Under the pieces are notes generated by a model. That model worked only from the letters and a program-made list of their open reading frames with translations, ran no database searches and had not been told where the DNA came from. 8,174 nt of DNA, from the IMG/VR virus record IMGVR_UViG_2681813263_000010; one strand, given 5' to 3'. The DNA comes from a virus (Duplodnaviria; Heunggongvirae; Uroviricota; Caudoviricetes). This document shows positions 1,899 through 8,145 of the stretch, piece after piece; the stretch's first letter is position 1, and each line of letters opens with the position of its first letter. The position numbers and the translations under genes were made by a program.

Positions 1899-2773
1899 CG
1901 CCTCACACCATCCAGCATGGTCTCTGGTGGCACCCCCTCGCGCAATCTGGCCTTCCAGGCACTGAATGCGGATTTCTTCGGGTTTGCCCCGGCACGCAAC
2001 GGGTATTCCCGCCAGACCTGTTCGAACACATCCGGATAATCCACTCGTCCCACAGGCTGCCCGGTGTTTTCCGGGGCTACCCGATCGGCTTCCCGCTGAA
2101 TGGCGGAATCGGCTTCAGGCTGCTGCAGTTGGAGTGATTGCTCCGGCCTTGCGGTCATCACCTGCTGCACAGCGCCCGAATCGGCTTTCAGCGCATACGC
2201 TGAATCGGCTTCCGGTGTCGAGCCTGCTGGCTGACCAGGATTGACGGTCTGAACATCCCCTGCCTGGTTCGTGGCGTTTTTTACGCCATGGACCATAGTG
2301 TTTTGATCTTCTTTATCTGTATCTTTATCTGTATCTGTCGTGACTCGTCGTGACATGTGCGTGACATTTCGTGACGCGCCGTGACAATCGCCATTTTGTT
2401 CCCGCTTTCTTTCCCTCTCTCGCTGCGCCCTCTTGCGCTCTGCAGGAGATTTTGCGGTTTGCGAAATATTGCCGTTGTCCTCTTTAAGCACCTGGCGTTT
2501 TTCCCATCCAGTGATTAAATCACCATCAAGTACCCGCCCCTGCATCGTCTGCAAAATTGAATCAATTACCTCTTCTGTCACGTCGAGCGCACTTGCCAAA
2601 TCTTCTGTCGTGACATCAATGTGACCTCGCGTGACATTTCGTGACGCGCTCACCAGGAGGTGGATATACACTGCCATCACTGTTGCAATTGGCTGCCCTG
2701 ACACCCTGGCAATTGTTCGCCACTTAGGGTCATTTGGCATGTCATGCCATAATCTGAGCCAGGCGTTAGCCAT
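1899..2773 (-). CDS. phage replication initiator / replisome-organizer protein (O-like, YdaU-like); 3' end masked
   Basis: ATG at 2773-2771 (MANAWLRLWHDMPNDPKWRTIARVSG...) with SD-like AGAGGTGA upstream (track start GTG at 2779). About 290 codons visible before the N-run. Sits immediately upstream of the DnaC-like gene, as in lambdoid O-P / Rac ydaU-ydaV modules. Iteron repeats lie inside the coding sequence. Confidence 0.8.
2310..2337. repeat. AT-rich 12-bp tandem direct repeat (tctttatctgta x2 plus partial) flanking iterons; putative DNA-unwinding element
   Basis: tctttatctgta at 2310-2321 and 2322-2333, then tctg. Encodes the TDKDTDKD repeat in the initiator protein on the opposite strand. 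Confidence 0.75.
2339..2385. repeat. iteron cluster 1: five CGTGAC repeats phased at 10-11 bp (putative origin of replication)
   Basis: CGTGAC at 2339, 2349, 2360, 2370, 2380 (helical phasing), all inside the initiator gene, as for lambda ori inside O. Confidence 0.75.
2577..2649. repeat. iteron cluster 2 (GTCACG 2577; CGTGAC 2609, 2630, 2640; TGTGAC 2620) including a 21-bp exact copy of part of cluster 1
   Basis: gcgtgacatttcgtgacgcgc occurs exactly at 2359-2379 and 2629-2649; tcttctgtc occurs at 2571-2579 and 2601-2609. Confidence 0.7.
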
Positions 2774-2844
2774 ACTCACCTCTTCTGATACCGAATCTTT
2801 TTACTCACGAGTTGCCGGGAGCGATTCGATATGGCTATTGTCAG

Positions 2845-3090
2845 TCAATGTACTGCCACAGCATTTCCTGCCGGGCCACCACGGTTCATCTGATTGAAAC
2901 CGGCGATTGCCACTGCGACAAAATCATCAGCGTCTCTCACCAGTCGTTCATGCGTCTCCACCAGTTCCCGAAAATAAGCTGAACTGTGGCTGCGCATTCG
3001 AGCCACCAGCGGAGGTGGCATTGCCCTTTCGATCGCAGGTAACAACGCCTGAATTTTTTCAACAGCGTCAGGGGTGTCTTTATCCAGCCA
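2845..3090 (-). CDS. cII-position protein (YdaT-like by synteny), C-terminal 82 codons visible; 5' end masked
   Basis: Stop TGA at 2847-2845; frame stays open to the N-run at 3091 (...WLDKDTPDAVEKIQALLPAIERAMPPPLVARMRSHSSAYFRELVETHERLVRDADDFVAVAIAGFNQMNRGGPAGNAVAVH). Lies 71 bp upstream of the initiator start. Family assignment is positional only, not sequence recognition. Confidence 0.5.
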   Translation of the reverse strand, partial: WLDKDTPDAVEKIQALLPAIERAMPPPLVARMRSHSSAYFRELVETHERLVRDADDFVAVAIAGFNQMNRGGPAGNAVAVH

Positions 3091-3718
3091 NNNNNNNNNN
3101 NNNNNNNNNNNNNNNNNNNNNNNNNNNNNNNNNNNNNNNNNNNNNNNNNNNNNNNNNNNNNNNNNNNNNNNNNNNNNNNNNNNNNNNNNNNNNNNNNNNN
3201 NNNNNNNNNNNNNNNNNNNNNNNNNNNNNNNNNNNNNNNNNNNNNNNNNNNNNNNNNNNNNNNNNNNNNNNNNNNNNNNNNNNNNNNNNNNNNNNNNNNN
3301 NNNNNNNNNNNNNNNNNNNNNNNNNNNNNNNNNNNNNNNNNNNNNNNNNNNNNNNNNNNNNNNNNNNNNNNNNNNNNNNNNNNNNNNNNNNNNNNNNNNN
3401 NNNNNNNNNNNNNNNNNNNNNNNNNNNNNNNNNNNNNNNNNNNNNNNNNNNNNNNNNNNNNNNNNAACGTAATATTTTTTCTCCTGTAAGNNNNNNNNNN
3501 NNNNNNNNNNNNNNNNNNNNNNNNNNNNNNNNNNNNNNNNNNNNNNNNNNNNNNNNNNNNNNNNNNNNNNNNNNNNNNNNNNNNNNNNNNNNNNNNNNNN
3601 NNNNNNNNNNNNNNNNNNNNNNNNNNNNNNNNNNNNNNNNNNNNNNNNNNNNNNNNNNNNNAAAAGTAAATAGTGATGCTATTTCAAAGTGATTAGCAAT
3701 CTTATTAGAATTGGATGT

Positions 3719-4219
3719 ATGAAAAGAAAATCATTGTCAGACACCGACCTCAACGCCGCCAGAAGACTGAAAGAAATCTGGATGGCAAAGAAATCTCAGT
3801 TGGGATTGACTCAGGAACGTGCGGCGGAAATTATGGGGTTTTCAACACAAGGGGCGGTAAGTCACTACCTAAATGGTCAAACCCCACTAAACCTTGAGGC
3901 TGTTCTAAAGTTTGCTGGCTTACTGAAAGTTCCCCCTGAGTCAATCAGGCCAGACATGGTAGATTTGCTGCAAATTGCAAGGATGTATTGTCGAGAACCA
4001 CAGCAAGATAACATAGTCGCATTACCAGCAGACACAGAACAAACAGAGGATGAACTACCGTTTGCCGTAGAGCCGATGGAACGAGATTTAATCCATACGT
4101 TCAGAGCTTTTCCGAAAGAAGATCAAGAACACATGCTTCAGGAGATGAAAGATAAAAAAGAATCAATGGATCGTACGGTTGCGCGGTGGTTAGCTGCACA
4201 AAAAGGCCGTCGCGCCTAA
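3719..4219 (+). CDS. HTH (XRE/Cro-CI type) transcriptional regulator, PaaR-like regulator of the three-component TA operon; candidate immunity repressor
   Basis: ATG 3719 (MKRKSLSDTDLNAARRLKEIW...), 166 aa, stop TAA 4217-4219. HTH segment LTQERAAEIMGFSTQGAVSHYLNG. C-terminal motif DLIHTFRAFPKEDQEHMLQEM resembles the DicA C-terminal region as recalled. No peptidase S24 module. Track start GTG 3689 has no SD. Confidence 0.8.
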   Translation: MKRKSLSDTDLNAARRLKEIWMAKKSQLGLTQERAAEIMGFSTQGAVSHYLNGQTPLNLEAVLKFAGLLKVPPESIRPDMVDLLQIARMYCREPQQDNIVALPADTEQTEDELPFAVEPMERDLIHTFRAFPKEDQEHMLQEMKDKKESMDRTVARWLAAQKGRRA

Positions 4220-4238
4220 ATCAGAGGAGATATGTAAA

Positions 4239-4433
4239 ATGAGTACAGTCCTTTCCCCAATGGTTTCAGAATTTGAGACAGTTGAGCAAGAAAATAGTTA
4301 CAACGAATGGCTGCGGGCCAAAGTAGCAGCAAGCCTCGCGGATCCCCGCCCGGCGATTCCGCATGATGAGGTAATGGCGGAAATGGAACAAATTATTGCC
4401 CAAATTGCTGCTGCAACTCACAGAGGTGAATNN
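4239..4433 (+). CDS. paaA: PaaA-family antitoxin (64 aa; stop codon partly masked)
   Basis: SD GAGGA 4225-4229, ATG 4239. N-terminal 45 aa (..LSPMVSEFET.EQENSYNEWLRAKVA.SLADPRPAIPHDEV) matches the PaaA2 antitoxin of E. coli O157 paaR2-paaA2-parE2 as I recall it; the C-terminal 19 aa differ. In-frame codon 4431-4433 is tNN, consistent with a stop. Confidence 0.8.
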
Positions 4434-4469
4434 NNNNNNNNNNNNNNNNNNNNNNNNNNNNNNNNNNNN

Positions 4470-4587
4470 TTATGGCTACCATCTGCTCGTGATGATTTGC
4501 GCCAGATCGTAGCCTACATAGCTAAAGAAAATCCCGCGGCAGCACGCAGAATGAAAATTCGAATTGAAACATCCGTTTTGCCGCTCA
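4470..4587 (+). CDS. parE: ParE/RelE-superfamily toxin, N-terminal part visible (start in gap 4432-4469, 3' part in gap 4588-4730)
   Basis: LWLPSARDDLRQIVAYIAKENPAAARRMKIRIETSVLPL fits the ParE N-terminal helical hairpin pattern (..A..DL..I..YIA..NP.AA......L......LP). Immediately downstream of the PaaA-like antitoxin. Confidence 0.7.
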
Positions 4588-4730
4588 NNNNNNNNNNNNN
4601 NNNNNNNNNNNNNNNNNNNNNNNNNNNNNNNNNNNNNNNNNNNNNNNNNNNNNNNNNNNNNNNNNNNNNNNNNNNNNNNNNNNNNNNNNNNNNNNNNNNN
4701 NNNNNNNNNNNNNNNNNNNNNNNNNNNNNN

Positions 4731-4931
4731 GTATCCCTTTCCTGGTTGCTGACAGGAAAAGAAGATAGCAATAGAGAGACACTTGATGATGATGAGAAAG
4801 CCCTGCTTGATGTTTACAGAAATCTGCCACCTGTAGAACGCAGAAATATGCTTGCAGCTTTTCAAATGCGACTTCAAAAACTGACTGAATTTTATTCAGA
4901 ATACGTTGACCCAGCAACGCGTCAAAAATAA
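4731..4931 (+). CDS. DicA-like HTH repressor, C-terminal 66 codons (N-terminus masked, or a 3' remnant)
   Basis: VSLSWLLTGKEDSNRETLDDDEKALLDVYRNLPPVERRNMLAAFQMRLQKLTEFYSEYVDPATRQK, stop TAA 4929-4931. WLLTG is the typical end of a Cro/CI-type HTH domain; the following motif parallels DicA (..ELLELFNALPESEQDTQLAEM..) as recalled. Position upstream of ydfA-ydfB matches dicA in Qin. Confidence 0.5.
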   Translation, partial: VSLSWLLTGKEDSNRETLDDDEKALLDVYRNLPPVERRNMLAAFQMRLQKLTEFYSEYVDPATRQK

Positions 4932-4953
4932 TTCTTTATTTTACAAAACAATA

Positions 4954-4975
4954 CCGCCGAAAGGCGGTTTTTTTT
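4954..4975 (+). terminator. rho-independent terminator
   Basis: Stem CCGCC (4954-4958), loop GAAA, stem GGCGG (4963-4967), then T8 (4968-4975), 23 bp after the DicA-like stop. An A-rich tract upstream could allow weak activity on the other strand. Confidence 0.8.
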
Positions 4976-4980
4976 GCCTT

Positions 4981-5025
4981 TTATGAATTCATAATGTTGA
5001 CATATGTTCATTTAAAGAGAACAAT
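4981..5025 (+). promoter_or_regulatory. 14-bp perfect palindrome (operator candidate) abutting a sigma70-like promoter for the ydfA-dicB operon
   Basis: TTATGAATTCATAA (4981-4994) is perfectly self-complementary. TTGACA at 4997-5002; 17 bp downstream AACAAT (5020-5025) is a weak -10. About 75 bp upstream of the ydfA ATG. Confidence 0.4.
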
Positions 5026-5098
5026 GTATTCCATCAAAGCACAACGGTGCGACAGGTTTTAGTTCCGCCACCCGGCGTTAAGGGGAAATGAGGTCAGC

Positions 5099-5412: not shown

Positions 5413-5523
5413 ATGCAGAAACGAGAACCCGTCATCATCGCGCCAGACTATACCGATGATGAACTTTATGAGTGGATTTTGGCGGCATCAGTTTCATTGC
5501 TGGCTGATGTCCGCCCTTTTTAA
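5413..5523 (+). CDS. YdfC-like small ORF (36 aa); 3' end overlaps the DicF-like sRNA
   Basis: SD GAGGAA 5402-5407, ATG 5413, stop TAA 5521-5523. MQKREPVIIAPDYTDDELYEWILAASVSLLADVRPF; the N-terminus resembles YdfC as recalled. The ORF-track 5251..5523 entry is the same frame with a spurious upstream start overlapping ydfB. Confidence 0.5.
   Translation: MQKREPVIIAPDYTDDELYEWILAASVSLLADVRPF
5465..5521 (+). ncRNA. dicF: DicF-like small RNA (processed from the dicB-operon transcript) with 3' terminator hairpin
   Basis: tttatgagtggattttGGCGGcATCAGtttcattgctggCTGATgtCCGCCcttttt resembles K-12 DicF as recalled (UUUCUGGUGACGUUUGGCGGUAUCAGUUUUACUCCGUGACUGCUCUGCCGCCC). Stem GGCGG.ATCAG / CTGAT..CCGCC (5481-5515), U-run 5517-5521. 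Position after ydfC matches Qin. Confidence 0.6.
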
Positions 5524-5703
5524 AGTGAATTTTGTGATGCGGTGAATGCGGCTCAGCGCACGCGGAACAGTTAAAACAGTAAGGAAAATCCCTTATTCCG
5601 GCGTTAATTATTAACTGGTTAACGTCACCTGGAGGCACCAGGCACCGCATCAACAAAGTTCACTTCGGTGATGAAAGGAAAGAGAAAATGTTGAATGTAG
5701 CTA

Positions 5704-5732
5704 TTGAAAACCAGAACGGGTGGAATTATAGT
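5704..5732 (+). promoter_or_regulatory. candidate sigma70 promoter: TTGAAA-N17-TATAGT
   Basis: TTGAAA 5704-5709, 17-bp spacer, TATAGT 5727-5732. Lies inside the stop-free frame upstream of the Rha ATG, arguing that this stretch is leader rather than coding. Confidence 0.4.
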
Positions 5733-5794
5733 GCATCTGCACCTCATAAAACGGGGGCCGGGCGTGGAAACCCGAACGTTACTCGAGCGCATAG

Positions 5795-5815
5795 CCGCGC
5801 TGAAGCGGTTTTTTT
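5795..5815 (+). terminator. weak terminator-like hairpin plus U-run (possible attenuator or sRNA 3' end)
   Basis: CCGC (5795-5798), loop GCTGAA, GCGG (5805-5808), followed by T7 (5809-5815). Only a 4-bp stem; an alternative GCGC/GCGC pairing (5787-5790 with 5797-5800) is mutually exclusive with it. Confidence 0.35.
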
Positions 5816-5984
5816 ATGCGTAATGCACAGCTCCATTCAAATTATGGTGGGATGTGCAGGGCAGTCGCAAGACTGGCCGGGTTCTCGAGTGACCGGTATT
5901 TCCACCCCTGTACGTCTCACCACCCTTATGGTCGTGGAAAACCTCGGTGGTGAGTTAATTAACTTATCACTCGAGGATGCCATC

Positions 5985-6542
5985 ATGGCTACTATCCCTG
6001 CCCTTTCTCACCCTGACGTAACCATCGAAAATGGTCGCGCTGTCACTACGTCTATTGCGATCGCAGAGTTCTTTGGCAAGCGTCACGACAATGTGTTACG
6101 TGCCATCGCAAATACTGAATGCTCACCTGAATTTAACGCCCTCAATTTTGAGGACGTCACCTACACTGACGCCAAAGGCGAAAAACGCCCGATGTACCAA
6201 ATCACCAAAAACGGCTTCGTTTTCCTGGTGATGGGATTCACTGGCAAAAAAGCCGCTGCATTCAAAGAAGCCTACATTGCTGAGTTCGACCGCATGGAGG
6301 CCGAACTGCGCCAGAATAACACCCCACCCACTGACAAAATAATTCCAGGCGATGGCCGCACCCTGGTTGTTCACTTCGACGAACGCGGCAACATCAGATT
6401 CACCGAAACCGTTCCTGATGGCGCACGGGTCTGTACCATGGAGACTTTCCGGTTTTATCTGGAAGAACAGGGATGGACTCTTGTTAACCGGGGCGCAATT
6501 AAAAATATGACTGTAGAGCAATTACTCAAAATTCATTGTTGA
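5985..6542 (+). CDS. Rha-family phage regulatory protein (185 aa)
   Basis: SD GAGGA 5972-5976, ATG 5985, stop TGA 6540-6542. N-terminal domain ..ENGRAVTTSIAIAEFFGKRHDNVLRAI...DAKGEKRPMYQITKNGFVFLVMGFTGKKAAAFKEAYIAEFDRME matches the Rha (pRha) signature. Track ORF 5688..6542 is the same frame with an upstream extension judged non-coding. Confidence 0.8.
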   Translation: MATIPALSHPDVTIENGRAVTTSIAIAEFFGKRHDNVLRAIANTECSPEFNALNFEDVTYTDAKGEKRPMYQITKNGFVFLVMGFTGKKAAAFKEAYIAEFDRMEAELRQNNTPPTDKIIPGDGRTLVVHFDERGNIRFTETVPDGARVCTMETFRFYLEEQGWTLVNRGAIKNMTVEQLLKIHC

Positions 6543-6552
6543 GGACGCGATA

Positions 6553-6741
6553 ATGGAAACGTTATTACCAAACGTTAATACGACTGAAGGTTGTTTTGAA
6601 ATTGGTGTCACTATCAGTAACACGGTATTTACTGAAGATGCCATTAACAAGAGAAAACACGAACGGGAGCTATTAAATAAAATATGCATTGTTTCAATGC
6701 TGGCTCGTTTGCGTCTGATGCAAAAAGGATGCTGGCGATGA
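6553..6741 (+). CDS. dicB: DicB cell-division inhibitor (62 aa)
   Basis: SD GAGGA 6541-6545, ATG 6553, stop TGA 6739-6741. METLLPNVNTTEGCFEIGVTISNTVFTEDAINKRKHERELLNKICIVSMLARLRLMQKGCWR, near-identical in pattern to K-12 DicB as recalled. Confidence 0.9.
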   Translation: METLLPNVNTTEGCFEIGVTISNTVFTEDAINKRKHERELLNKICIVSMLARLRLMQKGCWR

Positions 6742-6929
6742 ATACAGCATTTGCACTCGTTCTGACCGTTATTCTTAATACGGGCGAACCAGCTGAACTG
6801 GTTACCGGAGTATACAACTCCATGAAAGAATGCGTGGCTGCTGCAGCTGAACAGAAAATTCCCGGTAACTGTTATCCGGTTGATAAAATCATTCACCAGG
6901 ATAATAAAGAAGTCCCGGCAGGTCTTTAA
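6738..6929 (+). CDS. ydfD: YdfD-like small protein (63 aa; family reported as lysis-associated)
   Basis: ATG 6738-6740 overlaps the dicB stop (ATGA); SD AAGGA 6724-6728; stop TAA 6927-6929. MNTAFALVLTVILNTGEPAELVTGVYNSMKECVAAAAEQKIPGNCYPVDKIIHQDNKEVPAGL. Hydrophobic N-terminal segment. Confidence 0.85.
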   Translation: MNTAFALVLTVILNTGEPAELVTGVYNSMKECVAAAAEQKIPGNCYPVDKIIHQDNKEVPAGL

Positions 6930-7228
6930 AGCANNNNNNNNNNNNNNNNNNNNNNNNNNNNNNNNNNNNNNNNNNNNNNNNNNNNNNNNNNNNNNNNNNN
7001 NNNNNNNNNNNNNNNNNNNNNNNNNNNNNNNNNNNNNNNNNNNNNNNNNNNNNNNNNNNNNNNNNNNNNNNNNNNNNNNNNNNNNNNNNNNNNNNNNNNN
7101 NNNNNNNNNNNNNNNNNNNNNNNNNNNNNNNNNNNNNNNNNNNNNNNNNNNNNNNNNNNNNNNNNNNNNNNNNNNNNNNNNNNNNNNNNNNNNNNNNNNN
7201 NNNNNNNNNNNNNNNNNNNNNNNNNNNN

Positions 7229-8145
7229 CGGCTGCTCAGGACTGCGCTTATAAATTTATTGTCTGCGAGGATAAACCTGGTATACCCCGCCCTGCCCTCG
7301 ATTCCTGGGATGCTGAATATATGCAGGAAAACCGCTGGGATGAGGAGTCTGCTTCCTTTGTCCCGGTTGAGACTGAATCCGAACCGATGAACGTCACTTT
7401 TGACAAGCTGGCCCCTGAAGTACAGAACGCTGTCATGGTTAAGTTCGACACATGTGAAAACATCACCGTTGATATGGTGATTAGCGCGCAGGAACTGTTG
7501 CAGGAAGACATGGCAACATTCGACGGACATATCGTTGAAGCGTTGATGAAAATGCCAGAAGTTAACGCCATGTGTCCGGAGATTAAACTGCATGCCATCG
7601 GGTGGATTAAGCATAAATGTAAGCCTGGTGCAAAATGGCCAGAAATTCAGGCAGAGATGCGCATCTGGAAAAAATGTCGCGAAGGTGAACGCAAGGAAAC
7701 CGGAAAATACACGTCTGTTGTTGATCTCGCCCGTGCCAGAGCCAATCAACAGCACACTGAAAATTCAACAGGAAAAATCAGCCCGGCCATTGCTGCCATT
7801 CATCGCGAATACAAGCAGACATGGAAAACACTGGATGACGAACTGGCCTACGCTCTCTGGCCTGGTGATGTGGATGCCGGAAACATTGACGGCAGCATCC
7901 ATCGCTGGGCAAAAAATGAAGTTATCGACAACGACCGCGAAGACTGGAAGCGTATCTCGGCATCAATGCGCAAACAGCCTGATGCCCTTCGCTACGACCG
8001 CCAGACTATTTTTGGCCTTGTCCGTGAACGTCCGATCGACATTCACAAAGACCCTGTGGCACTGAACAAATACATTACTGAATACCTGACTACAAAGGGC
8101 GTGTTTGAAGATGAAGGAACAAATCAGAGCGCAACTGATACTTGA
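7229..8145 (+). CDS. hypothetical prophage protein, C-terminal ~305 codons visible (5' end masked); YdfE-position gene
   Basis: Long stop-free frame from the gap edge to TGA 8143-8145 (..AAQDCAYKFIVCEDKPGIPRP...EYLTTKGVFEDEGTNQSATDT). Antisense ORFs over the same span are N-run artefacts or shorter. No family recognised. Confidence 0.6.

Follow-up and report, generated by a model that had tools for sequence, protein, structure and literature searches.

We have analysed a DNA stretch of 8,174 nucleotides (nt) from a Caudoviricetes virus (IMG/VR record IMGVR_UViG_2681813263_000010), here called the window, with regard to positions 5688-5984 on its plus strand. A first-pass annotation had flagged this region as a promoter, hairpin and T-run unit inside a 99-codon stop-free frame upstream of a Rha-family gene. 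The region is probably the control segment of an antisense-RNA immunity cassette like those of P4, P1 and Gifsy-1, which governs the Rha-family regulator. In the computational analysis, the region contains members of two RNA families, IsrK and C4, with covarying stems and boxes, and one of the C4 target boxes overlaps the Shine-Dalgarno (SD) sequence of Rha. The reading frame that runs through these RNAs is conserved among homologous cassettes, and the peptide it encodes upstream of Rha shows no amino-acid constraint. The C4 antisense RNA at 5840-5927 and the boxes a1/b1 and a2/b2, which the first-pass annotation overlooked, are the actual regulatory logic of the locus.

For the comparison, homologous cassettes were drawn from viral contigs, first via the Rha protein and then via a C4 DNA pattern. 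We compared 86 distinct cassettes and 35 close sequence variants. The pairing counts for stems, for a1 with the C4 box a' and for b1 with the C4 box b' were taken from a 91-sequence MAFFT alignment (A1). Chance matches from the C4 pattern scan (L121, L133, L159, L165 and L196) were dropped from the per-sequence analyses and left as noise in this alignment.

RNA families and box pairing in the cassette

An Rfam covariance-model scan of the whole window revealed two full-length matches on the plus strand, both above their gathering scores and in canonical order and spacing. The first is an IsrK/SeqA-type small RNA at 5739-5815 (RF01394, 59.6 bits against a gathering score of 50, E 3.9e-11, model positions 1-77), and the second is a C4/CI-type antisense RNA at 5840-5927 (RF01695, clan CL00128, 76.7 bits against a gathering score of 45, E 3.9e-14, model positions 1-87). 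No tRNA or tmRNA was found in the window. The first-pass annotation had expected a short transcript from about 5739 to about 5815, and these predicted ends coincide to the base with the isrK match. At the sequence level, the features of the IsrK family are present together, namely the full-length RF01394 score, an upstream sigma-70 promoter, a 3' terminator and boxes complementary to C4.

The promoter at 5704-5732 (plus strand), correctly recognised in the first-pass annotation, consists of TTGAAA (5704-5709), a spacer of 17 nt and TATAGT (5727-5732), with 10 of 12 positions matching the consensus. It was unchanged across the 35 sequence variants and is the counterpart of PLE in P4 and PisrK in Gifsy-1. 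Its -10 hexamer ends 6 nt ahead of the isrK match, and a -10 hexamer stands at an equal distance 5' of the isrK match in P4 (TATAGT) and in Gifsy-1 (TATATT). Transcription is predicted to start near G5739. The spacer itself contains GGGTGGAA (5718-5725), 8 nt complementary to a', which we considered as a third C4 target and rejected because it stays the same where the a-box type differs.

Within the IsrK-type RNA, hairpin 1 (5739-5758) was paired in 86.5% of cells among the 91 sequences, and five of its seven pairs were changed on both sides. Hairpin 2 (5759-5774) carries box a1 in its loop, and the linker that follows it carries box b1. The 3' end is a predicted intrinsic terminator at 5793-5815, paired in 90.1% of cells in homologues, in which a stem of 6 base pairs (bp) is formed by 5793-5798 with 5805-5810 and a run of seven T occupies 5809-5815. 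Accordingly, the hairpin and T-run that had been placed near 5795-5815 are present, but the stem comprises 6 bp and not the 4 bp originally described.

The C4 segment showed a minimum free energy of -44 kcal/mol (z -5.04) and a fold identical to the Rfam consensus. Its outer stem of 17 bp (5845-5861 with 5906-5922) was paired in 97.4% of cells, and both sides had changed in 10 of its 15 pairs; for hairpin 1 (5862-5875), all four pairs were changed on both sides and pairing was 96-97%, a range given jointly with the outer stem. Two segments are single-stranded in this fold: the loop of hairpin 2 (5876-5897), which is b' (5881-5892), and the internal loop a' (5898-5905).

These two loops are complementary to boxes on both sides of the C4 RNA. 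On the upstream side, box a1 (GTGGAAA, 5764-5770), in the loop of IsrK hairpin 2, is an exact 7-nt complement of a', and box b1 (TTACTCGAG, 5779-5787), in the IsrK linker, is complementary to b'. In the alignment, a1 and a' were paired in 97.4% of cells, with all seven pairs changed on both sides, and b1 and b' in 91.3% of cells, with all nine pairs changed on both sides. Taken as a whole, the combined structure was paired in 94.5% of cells, compared with 81.4% when columns were shuffled and no more than 44.7% when partners were slid. On the downstream side, box a2 (GTGGAAA, 5934-5940) is the target of a', and box b2 (TCACTCGAGGAT, 5967-5978) is the target of b' and covers the Rha SD GAGGA (5973-5977). 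The Rha start codon at 5985 thus has its own SD, as first noted. In nearly all listed cassettes, b2 likewise extends into the SD, a few nt 5' of the start codon.

The boxes are highly diverse, and their complementarity follows this diversity. Among the 86 distinct cassettes, 17 types of a' and 34 types of b' occur, combined in 43 ways. In the per-sequence search, cognate a1 runs averaged 7.0 nt with a minimum of 7, that is, a near-universal exact 7-mer compared with about 5 nt for non-cognate partners. Cognate a2 runs also averaged 7.0 nt (minimum 5; an exact 7-mer in nearly all 43 combinations), against a non-cognate mean of 5.3 nt. The mean cognate runs of b1 and b2 were 9.1 and 10.8 nt, compared with 6.5 and 6.9 nt for non-cognate partners, respectively. 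The a and b types reassort independently, which suggests many heteroimmune classes. One contig of the sample (L174, minus strand) has two complete cassettes, at 3133-3387 and 4841-5095, about 1.7 kb apart, and their boxes differ: the a'/b' boxes are TACGCCAAC with GTTCTCTTGCGA in one cassette and TCTGCTAAC with GTTCTCTGATTG in the other.

In addition to C4 pairing, the initiation region of Rha has a strong local structure. A hairpin at 5929-5991 (plus strand; -28.3 kcal/mol, z -5.44), with an anti-SD CCUC at 5942-5945, buries a2, b2, the SD and the Rha AUG. This hairpin is kept in the family, with a mean z of -3.6 over the 86 cassettes, z below -2 in 86% of them and the SD window 74% paired.

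An open frame kept without peptide constraint

The short Rha ORF (open reading frame), at 5985-6542 on the plus strand, encodes 185 amino acids (aa) with a Phage_pRha domain (E 2e-32) and takes the position of kil in P4 and anrP in Gifsy-1. The protein is a regulator of the Bro network and, by analogy, presumably an antirepressor. The same frame continues upstream to an ATG at 5688, which lies 5' of the -35 hexamer (5704) and is preceded by an SD-like AGGA at 5676-5679, 8 nt away. The resulting long ORF (5688-6542, plus strand) encodes 284 aa, composed of the 99-codon "Ash" extension and Rha, and is the counterpart of P4 eta (ORF199). In Pfam, residues 14-109 of this ORF (window positions 5727-6014) match Phage_ASH (PF10554; 61.7 bits, with a cut-off of 26; positions 1-105 of the 107 in the profile), and residues 120-204 match Phage_pRha.

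The 297 nt of 5688-5984 have no stop in frame with Rha, compared with five and seven stops in the other two frames, in agreement with the first-pass annotation. That annotation had put the probability of such a frame by chance at a few percent, and for this single sequence we obtained a stop-free outcome in 1.0% of 20,000 dinucleotide shuffles, which roughly bears out that estimate. Among the close variants, 33 of 35 retained the Rha-phase frame without a stop over about 297 nt, whereas the other frames had 4-12 stops each (mostly 5-8). The two that break it are L019, with a TGA in b1, and L040, with a 1-nt insertion. When distinct stop-trinucleotide sites were counted in these variants, the Rha phase had one genuine site (that of L019) compared with 19 and 20 in the other phases; four further sites in the Rha phase all came from a single frameshifted sequence. 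The sole indel between variant groups, in the a2 region, is exactly 3 nt, and the frame stays open despite the exchange of a and b boxes among several types. The wider sample gave the same picture. In 68 of the 86 cassettes (79%), the start-codon frame had no stop as far back as the IsrK start, compared with 3-7 (3-8%) for the other frames, and in 65 it was open past the -35 hexamer. The fusion in frame is thus widespread among cassettes without being obligatory.

The extension does not evolve as a protein domain ordinarily would. Checking its codon periodicity across homologues, as the first-pass annotation had proposed, we found none, the variable sites being 46, 45 and 48 at codon positions 1, 2 and 3, compared with 58, 38 and 116 in Rha, where periodicity is strong. 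Likewise, no purifying selection at the amino-acid level was found in the extension: its ratio of nonsynonymous to synonymous polymorphism (pN/pS) was 0.76, compared with 0.94 and 0.88 for off-frame controls and 0.28 for Rha. What selection maintains in the extension is base pairing in the RNA and freedom from stops, and not the peptide sequence. Considering that the frame is kept stop-free yet lacks protein-like evolution, it is best read as a run-through frame like P4 eta and not as a folded N-terminal domain. The first-pass annotation preferred a short transcript to an N-terminal extension. It was right insofar as the extension does not behave as an ordinary domain, but it treated the RNA and the open frame as alternatives; since the frame is actively kept open in homologues and the RNA unit is present as well, both hold, as in P4 eta/kil.

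An AUG in the 5' end of the C4 RNA is also conserved. In the window it lies at 5844-5846 (plus strand), in frame with Rha and 141 nt upstream of it, and by position it corresponds to the first start of Gifsy-1 orf45 (+107). The distance from this AUG to the start codon was 141 or 138 nt in 68 of the 86 cassettes. The equivalent of the orf45 start is therefore AUG 5844 inside C4, in frame with Rha. A 45-aa ORF at 5816-5953 was also considered as the counterpart of orf45 and was rejected because its length is not conserved among variants (2, 27, 28 or 45 codons).

Known systems and the proposed mechanism

The arrangement in the window is closest in layout to systems described in P4, Gifsy-1 and P1/P7. 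In P4, the isrK and C4 models match the seqA leader and the CI RNA in the same order as in the window, a -10 hexamer TATAGT stands just 5' of the seqA match, and an a-type box is located in the hairpin-2 loop. The P4 "cI" ORF sits in a longer frame whose internal ATG overlaps the stop of ORF88, which makes this frame ORF199, that is, eta. Eta has its start 5' of the internal promoter, and its frame continues across the RNAs into the short ORF kil, which is formed by the last 65 codons of eta and begins with MATTLTPSHPE; the N-terminus of Rha, MATIPALSHPD, resembles this start. By BLASTP, the long ORF of the window and the P4 eta ORF share 36% identity (E 8e-13), with an alignment ending in IMATxxxxSHP(D/E). 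In the window this end is IMATIPALSHPD, the first residues of the short Rha ORF. Phage_ASH also falls on the same segment in P4 and in the window. Thus, both the long ORF in frame through the cassette and the homology to Eta place the window with the nested arrangement of P4. On the other hand, the controlled product is the 65-aa Kil in P4 and a 185-aa Rha-domain protein in the window, CI is preceded by about 78 additional nt in P4, and the P4 a-box is GTGAGAA instead of GTGGAAA. Eta is translationally coupled to ORF88, whereas the long ORF of the window has its own SD-like site, and the P4 cassette belongs to a satellite replication operon, whereas that of the window belongs to a lambdoid prophage of the Qin/DicB type. 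According to PMC10111431, which cites Forti et al. (1999), the constitutive promoter of P4 is internal to eta, CI lies inside eta, and interactions between CI and seqA end the transcript early, yielding CI. The same paper describes Kil as a truncated Eta, and full-length Eta as made only from the upstream late promoter, its translation preventing termination (PMC10111431).

In Gifsy-1, the isrK and C4 models match isrK and the orf45 region, where PMC4825925 places the processed RNA STnc1160. The promoter, the 77-nt IsrK, the terminator, a C4-type RNA about 25 nt further on, and then a2/b2, the SD and the start of a Bro-network regulator follow one another as in the window. The start of orf45 is the conserved AUG in the C4 5' end, equivalent to 5844 here. 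The ORF that begins at this Gifsy-1 AUG (34210) has 45 codons, and its stop shares the sequence ATGA with the AnrP ATG (distance 134 nt). Thus, orf45 is out of frame with anrP, and the AnrP frame is open just 27 nt upstream. In the window, by contrast, the upstream ORF and the regulator form one continuous frame (141 nt), which extends upstream past the promoter. The two systems differ further in the effector domain (ORF6N in AnrP, Phage_pRha here), in the box, which is TTGGCGT in Gifsy-1, and in position, the Gifsy-1 cassette lying beside antQ and not in a dicB operon. Experiments showed that PisrK drives the Gifsy-1 operon, that the long RNA is silent in translation, and that pairing of IsrK in trans with the a'/b' region activates this RNA; orf45 is translated, coupled to anrP and needed for anrP translation (PMC4825925). 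Hershko-Shalev et al. described IsrK as a structural homologue of P4 SeqA and compared STnc1160 with CI (PMC4825925), and Barquist et al. referred to an "IsrK-C4 immunity system" that is also found in lambdoid prophages (PMC3632133).

With P1/P7, the window shares the C4 RNA fold (RF01695) and the a1b1-c4-a2b2 layout of the immI operon. In P1 and P7, C4 has two single-stranded boxes, with one target pair upstream and one downstream over the ribosome-binding site. Citron and Schuster (1990, 1992) reportedly found that coordinated replacement of the boxes changes specificity, and this is said to be the basis of P1/P7 heteroimmunity. The P1 system differs in that the masked ribosome-binding site is that of icd, a small gene translationally coupled to ant, and in that the effectors are Ant1/Ant2 and not Rha. 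To our knowledge, no long ORF nested through the cassette has been described for P1. In this system, c4 represses the synthesis of Ant (PMC8546580).

By analogy with these systems, we propose the following mechanism. The promoter at 5704-5732, nested in the long ORF, would be constitutive and fire near 5739. The majority of transcripts would stop at the 5793-5815 terminator and yield a 77-nt IsrK/SeqA-type RNA that exposes a1 and b1. Read-through RNA would carry the C4/CI-type RNA (5840-5927), which may be processed out as its relatives are. When b' of C4 pairs with b2 over the Rha SD and a' pairs with a2, these pairings together with the local hairpin at 5929-5991 would leave Rha untranslated, and C4 pairing may also favour premature termination, as in P1 and P4. 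The a1 and b1 boxes would rival a2 and b2 for the C4 loops, both in cis and on free IsrK, so that IsrK could act as a decoy or activator, as in Gifsy-1. Considering that ATG 5688 lies upstream of the internal promoter, the 99-codon frame, the counterpart of P4 eta, would be translated solely from transcripts begun further upstream, for which a dicB-operon-type promoter at 4997-5025 is a candidate source. By running through the frame, ribosomes would open the folded cassette together with the Rha initiation region, leading to C4-insensitive expression and an Ash-Rha fusion. What would be selected in the extension is then the absence of stops and the RNA features, and not the peptide.

Several observations weigh against this interpretation. 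The isolated IsrK fold is thermodynamically ordinary (z -0.08), and hairpin 1 in this window has an A5741/G5756 mismatch relative to the family consensus. When a2 with a' and b2 with b' were tallied on the 91-sequence MAFFT alignment, just 55-64% of cells were paired, owing to indel misalignment; after this tally failed, the evidence for the a2 and b2 pairings is the per-sequence search of cognate against non-cognate partners only. About 21% of cassettes are without the in-frame arrangement, some of them having, like Gifsy-1, an out-of-frame overlapping upstream ORF. Finally, the terminator of a DicF-like RNA (5484-5511 and a T run; see below) stands between the candidate upstream promoter and ATG 5688.

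We also weighed three other explanations. The 99 codons could be a genuine folded N-terminal domain (Phage_ASH) of a 284-aa Rha protein, with the RNA motifs secondary, and the Pfam score well above its cut-off, the long form called by the Prokaryotic Genome Annotation Pipeline (PGAP) and by phage annotators, the conserved frame, the SD-like AGGA and the reported translation of P4 Eta (PMC10111431) are all in line with this. However, a folded domain is not expected to lack a third-position excess or to have a pN/pS indistinguishable from that of off-frame sequence. In addition, wholesale swaps of a and b boxes rewrite the peptide and keep the RNA complementarity, base pairing accounts for the conservation column by column, and the Pfam model coincides exactly with seqA, CI and seqC in P4. 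Based on these results, we regard a folded domain as unlikely. It is no less doubtful, in our assessment quite improbable, that the locus is a purely non-coding leader or small-RNA locus whose open frame is a never-translated by-product of composition and shared ancestry. Transcripts from a promoter downstream of ATG 5688 cannot encode the long form, the chance of a stop-free single sequence is about 1%, and the frame is broken in two natural variants, all of which is compatible with an untranslated locus. Nevertheless, the frame survives many independent box replacements, stop trinucleotides fall nearly all in the other phases, the frame is open to the IsrK start and past the -35 in most cassettes, and the a2-region indel is exactly 3 nt; equivalent upstream ORFs are, moreover, reportedly translated in Gifsy-1 (orf45, PMC4825925) and in P4 (eta, PMC10111431).

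The attenuator suggested in the first-pass annotation, in which two mutually exclusive 4-bp stems (5787-5800 and 5795-5808) choose between termination and read-through, did not find specific comparative support. Both stems exist in the sequence, and the GCGC/GCGC stem was paired in 89% of cells across homologues, with a few double changes. However, its pairing still reached 81% and 69% when the partner was slid by -2 and +2, because of GC repeats, and the comparative signal is therefore not specific. When 5739-5815 was folded, the 6-bp terminator stem was much more stable than its competitor. IsrK hairpin 1 and the terminator are indeed paired in homologues, as the proposed covariation check had sought, but the strongly covarying alternative partners of this region are the C4 loops, which pair with a1 and b1 over a long range, and not the small stems. 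The alternatives demonstrated in Gifsy-1 are likewise a1b1:a'b' against local hairpins (PMC4825925). Accordingly, we consider a choice between the two small stems to be very improbable, and the antisense-RNA immunity cassette with a run-through frame is the reading that we retain.

Operon context and meaning of the cassette

The cassette sits between dicF and dicB in an early operon of the Qin/DicB type, with the order ydfA-like gene (DUF1391), two short ORFs, DicF-like RNA, IsrK-C4-Rha, dicB and a DUF1482 gene. The names ydfB and ydfC for the two short ORFs are positional analogies with the PGAP annotation of a related E. coli locus, and the ydfA-like gene alone is supported by Pfam. A candidate operon promoter, TTGACA-17-AACAAT (4997-5025, plus strand; 10 of 12 matches), lies just 5' of the ydfA-like gene and could feed the Ash-Rha ORF. 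It is preceded by a strong bidirectional terminator-like hairpin at 4953-4968. The DicF-like RNA (5467-5516, plus strand), at 43.3 bits, falls slightly short of its gathering score of 48 and has its own terminator-like hairpin (5484-5511). Its place behind the ydfA-, ydfB- and ydfC-like ORFs and ahead of dicB makes it a probable true homologue of DicF. In the spacer that separates its terminator from the start of the long ORF, there was a sub-threshold match to STnc100 (5528-5657, plus strand; 33.5 bits against a gathering score of 47, E 2e-4). Downstream of Rha, dicB (6553-6741, plus strand; Pfam DicB, E 7e-38) overlaps the start of the DUF1482 gene (6684-6929, plus strand) over 58 nt in a different frame. 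Elsewhere in the window, masked stretches at about 1500-1900, 3090-3650, 4430-4740 and 6930-7240 appear as X runs in the translations and were taken as N runs, and the ORFs that cross them, 893-2779 (replication-protein-like) and 4239-4931, are only partly readable.

The standard annotation of such loci, in RefSeq/PGAP and phage records, as a "Rha family" or "Ash family" protein, with no RNA feature in the records inspected, hides the logic of the locus. In the public annotation of L001 (E. coli RMDEC465), positions 4134-4985 are given by PGAP as the long form, a 283-aa "Rha family phage regulatory protein", and in that of L002 (ST64B), positions 2147-3304 are given as the 385-aa "transcriptional regulator" sb41; neither record has an annotated ncRNA (non-coding RNA) feature for IsrK- or C4-type RNAs. 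The Phage_ASH family itself is affected as well. In P4 (L203, 8330-8521), Phage_ASH matches the obsolete "cI protein" ORF across the CI RNA and spans seqA, CI and seqC, and it has no match to the derepression protein epsilon, which is PF25738. PF10554 has been used as an epsilon marker in satellite searches, in which Ash was equated with epsilon (PMC8628076). Tentatively, and as something slightly less probable than its opposite, we suggest that the Ash domain, which is annotated in many proteins of phages, prophages and satellites, may be no protein domain but the translated footprint of the seqA/IsrK-C4/CI-seqC cassette, kept stop-free only for the ribosome run-through that overrides immunity, and that the boxes may form a combinatorial code for cross-repression or de-repression of Bro-type regulators among co-resident prophages and satellites.

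In summary, in this study, we provided quantitative support for an open frame without protein constraint in a further copy of a known prophage RNA switch. The paradigm is unchanged and is extended to one more context, that is, a specificity-coded RNA immunity switch ahead of Rha, within a DicB/DicF-type operon of a lambdoid prophage. In Gifsy-1, switches of this type control the induction of the prophage, and in P1 and P4 they control immunity. Box matches between co-resident elements would predict cross-talk.

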